NCBI GenBank assembly: GCA_039683415.1
Contig: JBDKRL010000010.1
Coordinates: 1-61,717, forward strand
Length of the DNA: 61,717 bases
Origin: Clostridiaceae bacterium
Lineage (GTDB): Bacteria > Bacillota > Clostridia > Christensenellales > CAG-138
Reading direction: 5' to 3'
Position 1 is the first letter of the stretch, and each line of letters begins with the position of its first letter. Made by a program: the position numbers and the translations under genes. The notes under the pieces are model-generated. The model was not told the DNA's origin and did no database searches. It worked only from the letters and a program-made list of their open reading frames with translations. Positions 25,702 to 43,805 of this stretch are shown in pieces.

Positions 25702-27354
25702 GTGACAACGACGAGCTTTGAAAGCCCAAGCACCATAAAAAGGCATTACGCTTCCTTCAGCGTGGATACCGCGCGGTTTACGCGCCTGAAGGGATGCAAG
25801 TTTTCCGGCGGCATACCGCTGATGTATGACGCGGAGGAGCGCAAGGTGATCATTGATCCCACCGATACGCATACCCTCGTCTATGGCTCAACCGGGTCGC
25901 TCAAAACGCGGGCAATCGTCATGCCGGCGATTAAGATTCTCAGCTATGCCGGGGAATCCATGATTATCAACGACAGCAAAGGCGAACTGCACGCCCGTCT
26001 TGCGGGTGAACTGAAGAGCCGCGGCTACAACATTGTCGTAATCAACTTTCGCAATCCTTCCGTGGGCAACGCATGGAACCCACTGCACATCCCATATCAA
26101 TTCTTCATCGAAGGCGATATCGACAAAGCCTCGGAATTCGCAAACGATATCGCCAATAACCTGATGATCAGCGACCGCGCAACCGACGATCCGTTCTGGG
26201 ATTACAGCGCTTCCGACCTGTTGTTCGGGCTGATCCTACTGCTGTTTCGTTACTGCAAGGACCACAATTTGCCTGTCAGCGCGGTCAACATCGGCAACAT
26301 CATTGAGCTTAGGCGTGCGCTGTTTGCAAATAAACAGCAGGCGAAGAACAGTTCGCTCTGGAAATACGCTTCGGAGGACGAGTTGGTCGCCGCCAGCCTG
26401 AGCGGTTCCATCTATGCACCCAACGACACCATGAACAGCATATTAAGCGTGTTCGACCAGAAGATGCGCACGTTTACGATTCAGCCGACGATTCAGGACA
26501 TGCTGGCGAACAATGACTTCGATATAGCGGACATCGGCAGGAGCAAGACCGCCGTGTTCATAATCACACCCGACGAAAAAACGAGCTTCCATAAGCTGGT
26601 CAGCCTGTTTATCAAACAGAGCTACGAGTACATCATCTACACCGCGACACTGCAAAAAGAAAACAAAGTTGAAAACCGGATTACTTATATATTGGACGAG
26701 TTTTCCTCCCTGCCGCCGATTACCGATATGCCTTCTATGATCTCGGCGGCGCGCTCGCGTGACATCCGGTTTCTGCTGGTCGTGCAGAGCCAGAGCAGTC
26801 TGAAACGGCGGTACGCCGAGGAAGCGGAAACGATCATCTCCAACTGCACAAACTGGATTTTCTTTACGAGCCGGGAAGTCGGCTTGCTCAAAGAGATTTC
26901 GGATCTGTGCGGAATGCAGAAGAATCATCTGCCGAATATATCGGTATTTGATTTACAGCATTTTTCAAAGGAAAAACGCGAGGCCCTCGTACTGTGCGGA
27001 AGACTGAAGCCGGCGCGAGTCGCCATGCTGGATATCGACCGATTTGGCGACCGGGCATACGCTGTCCTTGCCTTCGAGAAAGGCGCGCGGCTAGAGCGAC
27101 GAAGGCTGACGTTTGAACTCTCCGACGAACTCAAACAAAAATATGAAACCTATCTGCCTGGCGGTATACCGGGTACCGTTGGGCTAACGTCTGCACAGAC
27201 GAACGATTGGCTGGCGGCTGCGCCCAAGCGGGACGACGCCGATGGGGATCTGAACATCGACGAGCTCATCAAGAAGATTGACGAGAGGATCGAGGCATTT
27301 GAAAAAGAGCAAGCGGCCGAGCAGACGACGCAAGCCGCACCAGAAGACAAATAA
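25702..27354 (+). CDS. TraG/TraD/VirD4-family coupling-protein-like ATPase (soluble, no TM helices, degenerate Walker A)
   Basis: HTLVYGSTGSLKTRAIVMP (GSTGSLKT in place of GxxGxGKT), Walker B ILDEFSSLP, and a C-terminal TraG-D_C-like region (RDIRFLLVVQSQSSL). GTG 25702 with a GAGAGGA RBS. Confidence 0.65.
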   Translation: MTTTSFESPSTIKRHYASFSVDTARFTRLKGCKFSGGIPLMYDAEERKVIIDPTDTHTLVYGSTGSLKTRAIVMPAIKILSYAGESMIINDSKGELHARLAGELKSRGYNIVVINFRNPSVGNAWNPLHIPYQFFIEGDIDKASEFANDIANNLMISDRATDDPFWDYSASDLLFGLILLLFRYCKDHNLPVSAVNIGNIIELRRALFANKQQAKNSSLWKYASEDELVAASLSGSIYAPNDTMNSILSVFDQKMRTFTIQPTIQDMLANNDFDIADIGRSKTAVFIITPDEKTSFHKLVSLFIKQSYEYIIYTATLQKENKVENRITYILDEFSSLPPITDMPSMISAARSRDIRFLLVVQSQSSLKRRYAEEAETIISNCTNWIFFTSREVGLLKEISDLCGMQKNHLPNISVFDLQHFSKEKREALVLCGRLKPARVAMLDIDRFGDRAYAVLAFEKGARLERRRLTFELSDELKQKYETYLPGGIPGTVGLTSAQTNDWLAAAPKRDDADGDLNIDELIKKIDERIEAFEKEQAAEQTTQAAPEDK

Positions 27355-27398
27355 GCGGGGAAGCGAACAAACTCTGCCAAAAGAGGAGTGACTACGGC

Positions 27399-41166: not shown

Positions 41167-41946
41167 ATGATATCTGGTCAAAACAATAAACTGATTGGAC
41201 TTACGCCGCTGAACGAAGCATTGGAAAGCATATGCGATAACGGAGCTGTGTATTCGCTCAGCTATGCCGCTCCGCCGCATTTTCTGCTCAATCTGGGGCC
41301 TGGCGATGGACAGAGCACCGTGGCAAGACATATTGCGCGCGTCTATCAACAGGCGAAGATACGCCGCTTCGGCGGTCTGGACGCATATTTGGAATTTTCG
41401 CTGGACGGTACCATGGTGCAGATGAAGCGGGTGTTTGGGGATATCAAATCCTGCGCGGTCTTTACAAACGAGTATGAAGGAATCGTCGCGCTGGATATTT
41501 CCGCGCTGGCCGCGCACATCAACGAGGCGCAGACGGAGTATTTCCTGCGCGAGATCAGGAAGACTTCGTCCTTTGCGACATGCGTATTTTTTGCCGTGTC
41601 CGGTACGCAGCGGAGCGTGGCTCGACTGACGGCAAAGCTATGCGAGGTTGTGGAAAACGTGCAGACGATAACGGTTATGCCATATACAAGGCGTGAACTC
41701 GCGGCGATCATCGAAGAGAAAATCAATGCGCGCGGTATAGAAATTGAGGAGCCTTCAGCTTTTCGGGAACGTTTGGCCGCGCAGCTTGCCGAAGGGGAGA
41801 TCCATACAGCCAAGCAGGCGGTCAGCCTCGCAGAGAAAATAATGCAGCACGTGCGGCTGGAAGGAGCGACTGCGGCTATAGGACGAAAAGAGATGGAAAC
41901 CGCTTTCTCCTGCGACGTTGAATGGGAAGGGTGTGTGAACCGATGA
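41167..41946 (+). CDS. Degenerate AAA+-like (pseudo-ATPase) protein
   Basis: Walker-A-like FLLNLGPGDGQSTVARHIA lacks the Lys. Walker-B-like VALDISAL lacks the acidic pair. Sensor-1-like FFAVSGT. Lies 16 nt after clpP, and its stop overlaps the next start (ATGA). Confidence 0.45.
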   Translation: MISGQNNKLIGLTPLNEALESICDNGAVYSLSYAAPPHFLLNLGPGDGQSTVARHIARVYQQAKIRRFGGLDAYLEFSLDGTMVQMKRVFGDIKSCAVFTNEYEGIVALDISALAAHINEAQTEYFLREIRKTSSFATCVFFAVSGTQRSVARLTAKLCEVVENVQTITVMPYTRRELAAIIEEKINARGIEIEEPSAFRERLAAQLAEGEIHTAKQAVSLAEKIMQHVRLEGATAAIGRKEMETAFSCDVEWEGCVNR

Positions 41947-43805
41947 GAAGCGACCGCTGGGCATATCCATTAGAGATTAAGGAAGTGCTGACGCTGGAAG
42001 AGGCGTGCGGCAACGCCGGCGGACAGGTTCTCTATAGGGAGAACAACCAAAACTGGGTTTACGGCGGCGAAGGGCACACGATTATTCTCGGCGTGAGCGG
42101 AAGCGGAAAAAGCAGGCGCGGAACGCTGCCCATGGTACGCTCGCTTATATGGGCGGAGGAGTCGTTTTCCGTTCTCGATCCAAAAGGCGAAATCTATGAC
42201 GAGACGGTTGAATATGCGCGGAGGCAGGGATTTGAAGTGCATGTGGTCAACCTTCGGCACATCCGAGAAAGCGAACGCTGGAATCCGCTGACGCTTCCGT
42301 ATGAACTGGGCAGGTCCGATTCACCGGAAAACAAACAGATATCTGCGGAGATGATTGACGAGCTGGCGCATTCGATCTATAAAAAGAACGACAGTTCCGA
42401 TCCGTTTTGGACGGATTCCGCGCGTTCGCTGTTTATAGGCGCCGTATATGCGCTCATGGAATACGCAAAACCGGAGCAGGTTACGATGGCCGGCGTATAT
42501 CAGCTGATTGTTAACGGGGAAAAGCGCTGCGGACCCGTTTCGCTCCTCAAAGCGTTCGTGGACGAGATGCCGGAAAATTCAGTCACATCCATGCTACTGC
42601 AAAGCTACCTGAATACTGCTTCGGATACACGCGGCGGCATTCGATCGACTTTTTTAGAGGGCATCTCTACCTTCACCCGCAGCGAAGGAGTCTTGGAATT
42701 TTTGGTCGCGGACGATTTGAAGATCGGAGCGCTGGACGGCGCGCGAAAGACGGGCGTCTATATCATTCTTCCCGATGAGAACCCGATTTTCGACCGTCTG
42801 GCGGGCGTGCTGATGAGCCAACTGATGTCGCATTATATTCGCCTTGCACAGAACACGCTTGGCGGAAGGCTTCCCATCCGCATGAACGTCTGCCTTGAGG
42901 AACTCGGGAATGTCGGCGGAGCGCTCGCTAACCTGCCGCACCTGATGTCTGCGGGGCGCTCCCGAAACATTCGCTGCCAACTCGTACTGCAGTCTCTTTC
43001 CCAACTGACCGATATCTACGGCGCGAGCAGCGCGACGACCATCCTCAGCAATGCGGACGTGATCGTGGCTTACCGTACGAATCATTGGGATACGCTCACG
43101 GAGCTTTCCCGCAAGTGCGGCGAGCGTGAAGTGGATTACGGCGCGCATACCTCCCGCGAGGCGCTTATCACGCAAAGCCAGATAGGATCCATGCAGACGG
43201 GTCAAGCGCTCGTTATGGTTTCCGGCCGTTTAAAATTCATCACTTGTCTGCCAGATTACAGCGATATGTATCCGCGCGTGGAGTATCGGGAGCCTGTACG
43301 CAATAATCGCCAATACACGCCGCCGCCGGAAGCGATCTGTGTGGCGGCAATGATTCAGGAACTGAAAGCGAAAAAAGAGAGCCTTGAGGACGCAAAAGAC
43401 GAGGAGAAATCAGAAGACGAGCCCGGTGAACGAGTTTCCTTTTTTGATCTGATGCTCGCGGAACTTAACTGCAACAACGACGACCCCAAAGCGCCAAAAT
43501 CTGCGATTCAAGAGCGAATTGACGCAAGGATGGCGGAATTGCGCGAAGAAAGACTTGAAAAAAGCGGAAAGAAAGCGAACAAAAGGAAAGGGGGGTATGA
43601 TGTGATGATTCTGCACGATGGGGGGAACAGGAGCGCGGTGATCAATGCACTGATCGCTACCAGGTCTGCGACTCGCGCACAAGCGTTGATCCATGCATCT
43701 GATTTGCCTATAGAGATACATCTCAAATCGAAAAGAACAGCGGATAAGCTGAAAAAATCGATTTCCCTGGCTGGAGGAACGGCTATCGTATATCCTGCTG
43801 AGTAA
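41943..43805 (+). CDS. TraG/TraD/VirD4-family coupling-protein-like ATPase, second paralog (intact Walker A, no TM helices)
   Basis: ILGVSGSGKSRRGTLP Walker A, Walker B CLEELGNVG, and a TraG-D_C-like RSRNIRCQLVLQSLSQL. Same architecture as the 25702-27354 protein. Confidence 0.7.
   Translation: MRSDRWAYPLEIKEVLTLEEACGNAGGQVLYRENNQNWVYGGEGHTIILGVSGSGKSRRGTLPMVRSLIWAEESFSVLDPKGEIYDETVEYARRQGFEVHVVNLRHIRESERWNPLTLPYELGRSDSPENKQISAEMIDELAHSIYKKNDSSDPFWTDSARSLFIGAVYALMEYAKPEQVTMAGVYQLIVNGEKRCGPVSLLKAFVDEMPENSVTSMLLQSYLNTASDTRGGIRSTFLEGISTFTRSEGVLEFLVADDLKIGALDGARKTGVYIILPDENPIFDRLAGVLMSQLMSHYIRLAQNTLGGRLPIRMNVCLEELGNVGGALANLPHLMSAGRSRNIRCQLVLQSLSQLTDIYGASSATTILSNADVIVAYRTNHWDTLTELSRKCGEREVDYGAHTSREALITQSQIGSMQTGQALVMVSGRLKFITCLPDYSDMYPRVEYREPVRNNRQYTPPPEAICVAAMIQELKAKKESLEDAKDEEKSEDEPGERVSFFDLMLAELNCNNDDPKAPKSAIQERIDARMAELREERLEKSGKKANKRKGGYDVMILHDGGNRSAVINALIATRSATRAQALIHASDLPIEIHLKSKRTADKLKKSISLAGGTAIVYPAE

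Follow-up and report, generated by a model that had tools for sequence, protein, structure and literature searches.

Two genes of a 61,717-bp contig (JBDKRL010000010.1, here the window, which is the complete contig) from the metagenome-assembled genome (MAG) of a 'Clostridiaceae bacterium' encode soluble VirD4-like ATPases that share their ancestry with type IV coupling proteins (T4CPs) and have lost both the membrane anchor and the link to a type IV secretion system (T4SS). They stand at the two ends of a co-oriented gene island, in which the first is followed by a gene for an all-tetratricopeptide-repeat (TPR) protein and the second is preceded by a ClpP gene and a gene that we call c16, and relatives of the island keep these two ends while exchanging what lies between them. 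We see about an even chance that the island is a modular cytoplasmic conflict system, acting against phages or plasmids, that was built from repurposed coupling proteins and is widespread in gut Clostridia. The original prediction for this DNA, which was made from its sequence, had proposed that the two ATPases were repurposed away from conjugation, and this idea is strongly supported by synteny, as a module without T4SS genes is kept in some 30 loci, only one of which lies beside a T4SS, and both genes are under purifying selection.

The family assignment of the two proteins, hereafter VirD4-1 and VirD4-2, is confirmed. Both open reading frames (ORFs), with their Walker and arginine-box motifs, lie where they had been reported, and the TraG/VirD4 architecture assigned to them is borne out by profile searches. 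VirD4-1 matches the Pfam models T4SS-DNA_transf (E=1.9e-43, 149.5 bits against a cutoff of 20.1), TraG-D_C (4e-21, 75.7 bits, cutoff 22) and TrwB_AAD_bind (3.4e-18, 66.1 bits, cutoff 20.5), and VirD4-2 matches the same three at 1.6e-38 (133.2 bits, cutoff 20.1), 2.5e-21 (76.4 bits, cutoff 22) and 1.3e-14 (54.3 bits, cutoff 20.5); aligned with each other, the two are 27% identical over ~390 residues (E=1e-40). As read from the translations, VirD4-1 carries the Walker A sequence GSTGSLKT, the Walker B sequence ILDEFSS, the arginine box RDIRFLLVVQS and an acidic C-terminal extension, and VirD4-2 carries a canonical Walker A sequence, GVSGSGKS, together with CLEELGN and RNIRCQLVLQS. Neither contains a 19-residue stretch with a mean Kyte-Doolittle hydropathy of 1.6 or more and so neither has a transmembrane (TM) segment, in agreement with the earlier reading that the N-terminal TM helices of coupling proteins are missing from both. 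Because a search of PDB sequences with the VirD4-1 profile gave no significant match, a fold search was needed, and the RecA-like fold of this protein was compared using an AlphaFold2 model (20-sequence alignment, mean predicted local distance difference test score, pLDDT, 81). Foldseek placed Cagbeta (8dol) at the top (1.8e-16), with TrwB at 1e-13 to 1e-11 and a TM-score (target) of ~0.7 and with DotL also among the matches, and HerA and VirB4 structures ranked behind the coupling proteins. The predicted fold of VirD4-1 is of the coupling-protein type, combining a nucleotide-binding domain with an all-alpha domain.

The best NCBIfam model for both proteins is NF045973 (conju_CD1115; cutoff 250 bits), an equivalog named 'VirD4-like conjugal transfer protein, CD1115 family', which VirD4-1 matches with 264.2 bits and VirD4-2 with 213.5 bits. 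The name is at odds with the genomic context here. Among the ~50 larger ORFs of the window that were scanned, a set that underlies all our statements on missing genes in the contig, no integrase was found and, as the original prediction had held for the island, no relaxase, VirB4 or VirB6, nor was an oriT-type feature seen for the island. With two defining features of a coupling protein absent, the anchor and the linkage to a T4SS and relaxase, and with the Walker A sequence of VirD4-1 departing from the norm, no annotation as a conjugal transfer protein is warranted.

A search with the VirD4-1 protein returned 881 relatives, many of them 55-92% identical and mostly from MAGs of gut and rumen Clostridia. 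About 90 loci were collected and all of their ORFs clustered; the counts of loci given below refer to ~30 non-redundant ones. A neighbour-joining tree, built from 89 VirD4-like proteins encoded in the collected loci, puts the TPR-linked proteins (VirD4-1) in one clade and the c16-linked proteins (VirD4-2) in a separate one, a short form described below being the most divergent. The two had been taken for paralogs and they are indeed homologous, but the tree makes them two old lineages that co-occur, not recent duplicates. The sister group of the VirD4-1 clade consists of ~720-aa proteins from Bacilli MAGs whose genes lie beside those for a CHAP-domain protein and Tad/CpaF-type proteins. Two N-terminal TM helices are present in all 24 of the ~720-aa relatives of conjugative type examined; such an anchor is lacking in 33 of 35 members of the VirD4-1 clade and in all nine of the VirD4-2 clade.

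These data bear directly on whether the two proteins might after all be ordinary components of conjugation, either coupling proteins that serve in trans a T4SS and relaxase encoded elsewhere or remnants of an eroding integrative and conjugative element (ICE). The score of VirD4-1 above the NF045973 cutoff would fit such a role, as would the TM-anchored sister clade with its CHAP and Tad-type neighbors, and in one locus (L006/L012) the module lies directly downstream of genuine T4SS genes (TrbC, TrbL_2, PrgI, a VirB4-like ATPase and a sortase). However, that T4SS has a separate, full-length VirD4 of its own (604 aa), none of the other ~29 loci has T4SS genes within +/-10 kb, the anchor that would dock these proteins to a T4SS is gone throughout nearly all of both clades, and the island in the window, where relaxase, oriT-type feature and integrase went unseen, has metabolic genes to its left and right, over 18-23 kb in either direction. 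Decay is excluded by conserved synteny and by the ratios of nonsynonymous to synonymous substitution (dN/dS), which were calculated between the window and locus L133 for the left half of the island and locus L129 for the right half. These are 0.066 for VirD4-1, 0.050 for the TPR gene, 0.069 for ClpP, 0.114 for VirD4-2 and 0.089 for a HerA-like ATPase gene in the middle of the island, with core genes at 0.05-0.17 overall and two flanking housekeeping genes at 0.04-0.12; both VirD4-like genes are thus under purifying selection at the level of housekeeping genes. We consider a role in conjugation very improbable.

Purifying selection also changes how the P-loop of VirD4-1 is to be seen, which the original prediction had called degenerate. 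It is non-canonical, but it is not decaying: throughout the clade the Walker A sequence reads G[SA]TGS[L/K/M/R]K[ST], every member lacking the glycine before the lysine, where conjugative relatives have GSTGSGK[ST] and keep this second glycine, and neither the Walker B motif (DEF) nor the ARSRxIR...Q box varies. A variant that is fixed across the clade in a gene with so low a dN/dS points to specialization. Two further groups of short VirD4-like proteins (~450-515 aa, mostly without TM segments, from Acutalibacteraceae and Bacilli MAGs) were seen among the collected loci, one of which, c26 (L073, L077, L078, L080, L082, L084), has a Gly-less P-loop of the form GPTGCKK[ST]R; the other is c42 (L074, L076, L079, L083, L085).

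The organization of the loci is strikingly regular at its ends and variable in its middle. The VirD4-1 gene is followed directly by the TPR gene in 30 of 30 non-redundant loci, and of the 17 loci with at least 9 kb of downstream sequence, 10 have there another VirD4-like gene whose product lacks TM segments. This second gene usually comes after ClpP and c16, as in L001, L011, L014, L019, L030, L088, L090, L129 and L131, which is the arrangement of the window, and overlapping stop and start codons accompany this recurrent trio. Another type has a gene for a 222-aa protein ahead of the second gene, which there encodes the short form of the ATPase (437-471 aa). The two halves nearly abut in compact loci of ~8 kb (L001, L030, L088, L090). 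Elsewhere they are separated by a cassette that encodes a ubiquitin-like (Ubl) candidate, an E1-like enzyme, a transglutaminase-core protein and an SPFH protein, with or without a HerA-like ATPase and a WHH nuclease (the window, L008, L016, L020, L041, L086, L129, L131), or by one that encodes vWA, PP2C and kinase proteins (L006, L011, L022, L039). Among the latter, L011 belongs to a complete genome, that of Hominifimenecus sp. rT4P-3 (NZ_CP167068). The gene order of the window from E1 to VirD4-2 is complete in the distant locus L131, where the HerA-like protein is 41% identical, and is kept in L129 as well. The island is thus more than two ATPase genes: it is a structured multi-gene module with a third ATPase of the FtsK/HerA superfamily (36917-39520). 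Its genes are listed in Table 1; compact loci of the L001/L088 type contain c3, X, VirD4-1, TPR, c4, a small ORF, ClpP, c16 and VirD4-2.

Table 1. Genes of the island and the divergent gene at its left side, with window coordinates
Feature	Coordinates	Strand	Remarks
c3, ~280 aa	23675..24523	-	divergently transcribed; homologs upstream of VirD4-1
X, winged-helix protein	24779..25678	+	Trans_reg_C 1.1e-5; directly upstream of VirD4-1
VirD4-1, soluble VirD4-like ATPase	25702..27354	+	550 aa; NCBI-called product P0001
All-TPR partner (c1)	27399..28442	+	consensus TPR 1.5e-23 (profile match)
c4, conserved helical protein	28458..29213	+	present in 14 non-redundant loci
c96, beta-grasp/ubiquitin-like candidate	29643..29960	+	105 aa; first cassette gene; likeness from sequence
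c105	30000..30434	+	144 aa; one N-terminal TM helix
ThiF/E1-like adenylyltransferase	30409..31716	+	PF00899 7e-28
c97	31766-32359	+	conserved; without Pfam match
c34	31766..33405 (block)	+	runs to 33405 from a start that is probably near 32540; conserved; without Pfam match
Transglutaminase-core (papain-like Cys) protein	33419..34369	+	PF01841 1.8e-11
SPFH/Band-7 protein	34412..35551	+	PF13421 5e-20
Multi-TM protein	35568-36218	+	
c50, Zn-ribbon and TM protein	36250-36897	+	
HerA/DUF87-type ATPase	36917..39520	+	867 aa; DUF87 7e-8, HerA_C 2e-7
WHH/colicin-DNase-type HNH nuclease	39517..40407	+	PF12639 8e-16, PF14414 4e-11
ClpP paralog	40554..41150	+	PF00574 7.7e-58
c16	41167..41946	+	259 aa; degenerate AAA+-like P-loop region; constantly between ClpP and VirD4-2
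VirD4-2, soluble VirD4-like ATPase	41943..43805	+	620 aa; homologs begin at the same MRSxRW

The conserved core with its exchanged cassettes, a hypervariable gene X, the nuclease and signaling content of the cassettes, a mosaic base composition and neighbors of defence type together favor the conflict-system reading. Gene X evolves fast: relative to its counterpart in L133 its product is 46% identical, with a dN/dS of 0.41, and its neighbors are 83-92% identical, with values of 0.05-0.17. At the position of X, some loci encode a winged helix-turn-helix (wHTH) protein, a deeper subclade has a calcineurin-like phosphoesterase, and others carry unrelated genes without an assigned family, a pattern that suggests a diversifying specificity component. 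The G+C content between 24000 and 44000 is ~0.51 over VirD4-1, TPR and c4, 0.57-0.61 over the cassette from E1 to HerA, and ~0.54 over ClpP, c16 and VirD4-2. Genes of Hachiman, Gabija, Lamassu, restriction-modification and DUF2326 systems occur in the flanks of several loci, and ~10% (an estimate) of 112 upstream flank proteins match defence families; as a sign of defence-island enrichment around the module this is suggestive only. In L004/L005 (3951-6947) a CTD11/MC7/DUF2326 trio and a methylase/RE_Eco29kI gene lie directly upstream of the VirD4-1 module and adjoin phage-type replication genes (PolA, an Enc34 ssDNA-binding protein and a PD-(D/E)XK protein). A phage origin of the module itself is not supported, there being only 2 close relatives among the 2.9 million viral contigs of IMG/VR.

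If the island is a conflict system, the labor might be divided among three modules. Module A (X, VirD4-1 and the TPR protein) would be the sensing and regulatory unit, with X and the TPR protein providing target recognition and VirD4-1 acting as a slow or switch-like NTPase that the TPR protein would gate, much as CagZ gates Cagbeta. The precedent is the Cagbeta-CagZ complex (8dol), in which, by its PDB title, a T4CP ATPase is regulated by a small helical partner; since CagZ, unlike the partner here, is no TPR protein and Cagbeta is held in the membrane as part of a T4SS, the likeness would be one of mechanism only. Module C (ClpP, c16 and VirD4-2) could be an ATP-driven executor, either feeding a protein substrate to ClpP or freeing effectors by proteolysis, and module B, the variable cassette between A and C, would contribute accessory signaling and effectors. 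In the window, the Ubl-like, E1, transglutaminase and SPFH proteins might serve in tagging or signaling and the HerA-WHH pair might degrade DNA once activated.

Several observations weigh against this proposal. In L013, L025, L032 and L069 one finds VirD4-1 and TPR but, within ~10 kb, no second VirD4-like gene, and the cassette from E1 to HerA-WHH occurs in L132 without ClpP, c16 and VirD4-2 in the 10 kb downstream. Each of modules A, B and C can be met without the others close by, so the parts may be separable systems. The flank survey was made without a background control, and many flank genes are plain housekeeping genes. Searches of PADLOC-DB v2 left c3, X, c4, ClpP, c16 and VirD4-2 unmatched, VirD4-1 giving only a weak match to mad8 (3e-7) and the TPR protein a marginal one to PDC-S67 (E=0.0015). 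The vWA and PP2C proteins of the L006-type cassette likewise have no PADLOC match and its kinase has only weak PD-T4-6 matches. The TerY-P triad, with which this cassette has vWA, PP2C and Ser/Thr kinase domains in common (precomputed Pfam, the vWA match being weak), is thus linked to it by domain composition alone, and an identity with TerY-P is unconfirmed. Finally, no column of an IGF/LGF-type ClpP-docking tripeptide ([ILVM]G[FLM]) is conserved in 11 VirD4-2 homologs, and no such conserved tripeptide is seen by eye in the c16 alignment.

The first of these points raises the question of whether two or three independent systems are merely co-located here, namely VirD4-1 with TPR, ClpP-c16-VirD4-2, and the Ubl/E1/transglutaminase/SPFH/HerA-WHH set. 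Beyond the solitary occurrences just given, the three parts differ in G+C content, and the intergenic stretches at 29213-29643 and 40407-40554 may divide the island into separate transcription units. Against this, modules A and C bracket no fewer than three different middles and, in other loci, none at all, every gene from 24779 to 43805 is on the same strand with short gaps between, and the order of the window is preserved both in L129 and in the distant L131. That independent systems are merely co-located is, in our judgment, unlikely.

The middle cassette of the window deserves a closer look because it brings in a further alternative. Its first gene, c96, recurs upstream of ThiF in L008, L016 and L132, and the c96 protein ends in ...SEDGPVAAC, with no terminal Gly-Gly; in L131 (1901-3400) four tandem genes for ~100-aa proteins occupy the c96 position, a correspondence of place and not of demonstrated relationship. 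PADLOC E1-E2 models match the ThiF/E1 gene in the E1 part alone. The genes c97 and c34 co-occur with ThiF and transglutaminase in several loci, and the multi-TM gene and c50 precede the HerA-like gene in L129, L131 and L132 too. The HerA-like ATPase matches PADLOC HerA (2e-19, over part of its length) and NCBIfam CedD (9e-18); a VirB4 identity was rejected, as it scores 19.8 bits with TIGR00929 against a cutoff of 643.1. Eleven homologs were found, and in each one examined the ATPase gene is followed by a WHH nuclease gene. The start codon of the nuclease overlaps the HerA-like stop codon (ATGA), a mark of translational coupling. The pair (36917-40407), kept in L129, L131 and L132, has the adjacent ATPase and nuclease that characterize HerA-nuclease defence pairs, although WHH is not among the partners described for these. 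Repeats were seen in two of these genes. The multi-TM gene carries, at its 3' end (36050-36175), a 42-nt tandem repeat in three degenerate copies, and in the 5' part of the WHH gene (39546-39821) there is a 138-nt tandem duplication of 94% identity that encodes an acidic repeat, DWDCA...DLPPEGDS.

One might also see in this content a protein-secretion or toxin-delivery apparatus of monoderms, similar to the type VIIb secretion system (T7SSb), with the soluble ATPases as substrate receptors and unfoldases docking on small membrane proteins, the TPR and YbjN-type proteins as chaperones, and proteins of the cassette, such as the WHH nuclease, as exported toxins. T4CPs are, by their ancestry, substrate receptors. 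WHH domains are, by their Pfam description, classic polymorphic-toxin tips, and the cassette places an SPFH protein and three TM proteins beside the HerA-like ATPase. In compact loci VirD4-2 is followed by a 3-TM small protein and a TM-less FtsK/SpoIIIE ATPase of 1059 aa, an M50-type membrane protein being the alternative in this place, and related loci include YbjN/TY-chaperone-like genes. A Ubl-like protein near FtsK-family ATPases also recalls YukD/EsaB, the Ubl-like protein of T7SSb. However, no immunity gene adjoins the WHH nuclease here or in L129, there is no LXG or WXG100 Pfam match and no cell-wall hydrolase was seen, all three ATPases lack TM segments, and no membrane protein follows VirD4-2 in the window; known secretion systems, moreover, do not feature a ClpP, a regulator-like gene in divergent orientation or a wHTH gene that is hypervariable. 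Relative to T7SSb proper (EssC, EsaB/YukD, EsaD), FtsK-superfamily ATPases, small Ubl-like and chaperone-like proteins and a nuclease are held in common, but the ATPases here are unanchored and a ClpP and an E1 enzyme are present. Secretion or toxin delivery strikes us as unlikely.

To return to module C of the conflict-system reading, by domain and by catalytic triad the ClpP gene is predicted to encode a ClpP serine protease: the serine of GxASMG, the histidine of HQP and the aspartate are all intact when aligned to the solved ClpP 6cfd (4e-45; 45% identity to solved ClpPs). VirD4-2, whose start codon overlaps the c16 stop codon, ends in ~74 residues (43581-43802) with a likeness to the ribosomal L7/L12 C-terminal domain (31% identity to E. 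coli RplL by BLASTP, E=3e-5), and this pattern is kept in VirD4-2 homologs, with an acidic coiled-coil linker joining the tail to the ATPase. For c16, the profile matches to RuvB-like proteins and EccA1 in PDB are not significant, and the AlphaFold2 model is poor (pLDDT 48.6, 4-sequence alignment) and unusable for a fold search, which leaves the motif and the order of secondary structure as the basis of its AAA+-like assignment. A ClpX-like mode of docking on ClpP is unsupported, given the tripeptide results above. In ClpXP and ClpCP an intact ClpP is likewise found beside ATPase genes, but the ATPase beside it here is related to T4CPs and has a RecA fold, in contrast to the AAA+ unfoldases. 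It is tempting to speculate that soluble hexamers derived from T4CPs, aimed by a hypervariable wHTH/TPR unit, thread the proteins of captured nucleoproteins into a dedicated ClpP as a new class of immune machine, though we regard this as quite improbable. The captured targets would be DNA led by a relaxase or terminal protein, or phage proteins; in the cassette versions the Ubl/E1 set might mark, and the HerA-WHH DNase might destroy, the remainder. Such a pathway would be akin to a ubiquitin-proteasome route against mobile genetic elements, with a non-AAA+ ATPase as the partner of ClpP.

Comparison with known systems helps to place the module. Its two VirD4-like proteins have in common with the type IV coupling proteins (TrwB of R388, VirD4, H. 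pylori Cagbeta, Legionella DotL, and Gram-positive T4SS-C VirD4 proteins such as that of C. difficile CTn4) the Pfam domains, the fold, the Walker B motif and the Arg/Gln box, as well as an acidic C-terminal extension; they differ in having no anchor and no T4SS, relaxase or oriT context, in the Gly-less Walker A of VirD4-1 and the L7/L12-like tail of VirD4-2, and in partners that are TPR, ClpP and c16 instead of relaxosome or adaptor proteins. The HerA/FtsK defence systems (Sir2-HerA, DUF4297-HerA, and mad8 of MADS) show the same pattern of a hexameric RecA-fold ATPase with a nuclease as the DUF87 ATPase and WHH nuclease of the window. The core, in contrast, belongs to the T4CP branch and has two ATPases with ClpP and TPR, no PADLOC HerA-system model fits it, and HerA structures are second-tier fold matches of VirD4-1. 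The Ubl-E1 operons Bil, CBASS Cap2 and '6A-MBL' likewise combine ThiF/E1 with a Ubl-like gene, but no E2 or JAB domain was detected with the E1/Ubl-like set of the window, where transglutaminase-fold and SPFH proteins stand instead. Full-text literature searches found no description of the module; the nearest mention, in the paper on Menshen, concerns NsnA proteins, three of which begin with a T4SS-DNA_transf domain, and the paper on TY-chaperones concerns ARG systems that are unrelated to it. On our reading the module is best grouped with conflict systems centered on NTPases of the FtsK/HerA/T4CP superfamily, with a modest probability of its being an entirely new category in which a RecA-fold translocase works with ClpP.

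In the accepted view, coupling proteins are dedicated gatekeepers of T4SSs; this widespread lineage appears to have shed its anchor and its T4SS and gained a fixed TPR partner, a private ClpP and immunity-type cassettes. If our reading is right, the functional range of the FtsK/HerA/T4CP superfamily would be wider than assumed, and the automatic annotation 'conjugal transfer protein', from which ICEs are called in gut metagenomes, would be systematically wrong for these genes. It would also add a compact candidate defence mechanism of 7-8 genes in a medically relevant and under-studied phylum, perhaps the first to combine ClpP with a RecA-fold translocase.

As to the remaining genes beside VirD4-1, the TPR family is sizeable, with 394 representatives (50%-identity clusters) at E<=1e-10 among 1.84 billion proteins. 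For c4, the best PDB profile matches are Sel1L and SycD (E~0.02, not significant), a weak Sel1/TPR-like similarity, and profile searches of PDB sequences with c3, c4 and c16 gave nothing significant. The divergent gene c3 is present in 12 of 22 loci with enough upstream DNA and has a dN/dS of 0.15 relative to L133; it has no Pfam, PADLOC or PDB match, and it may be a regulator, as by eye it resembles regions 2 and 4 of sigma-70.

A defined right edge of the island emerges from L129, a relative of 77-82% nucleotide identity. There the similarity to the right half stops a few bases past VirD4-2, and the end of the island abuts a ceramidase/FGGY/ABC block (L129 10477-18617, corresponding to window 6873-14456) that in the window is found left of the island, ~17 kb away. 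The chromosomal position of the island thus differs in the relative; either the island moved or the chromosome was rearranged between the two. No tRNA was found on the contig, there is no convincing case of direct or inverted repeats around the island, and promoter- or terminator-like sites are not in excess of the shuffled expectation. The left flank encodes GH3 glycosidases, a sugar kinase and isomerase, an ABC sugar importer, a YesM/YesN-like two-component pair, and hydrolases and dehydrogenases, and the right flank encodes SDR, Rieske, ferredoxin, VTT, rhodanese, PhoU-like and HAD proteins. Farther to the right, no Pfam model matches, at E<=0.001, either of two large minus-strand ORFs, one of 615 aa (55680-57527) and one of 609 aa (58363-60192).

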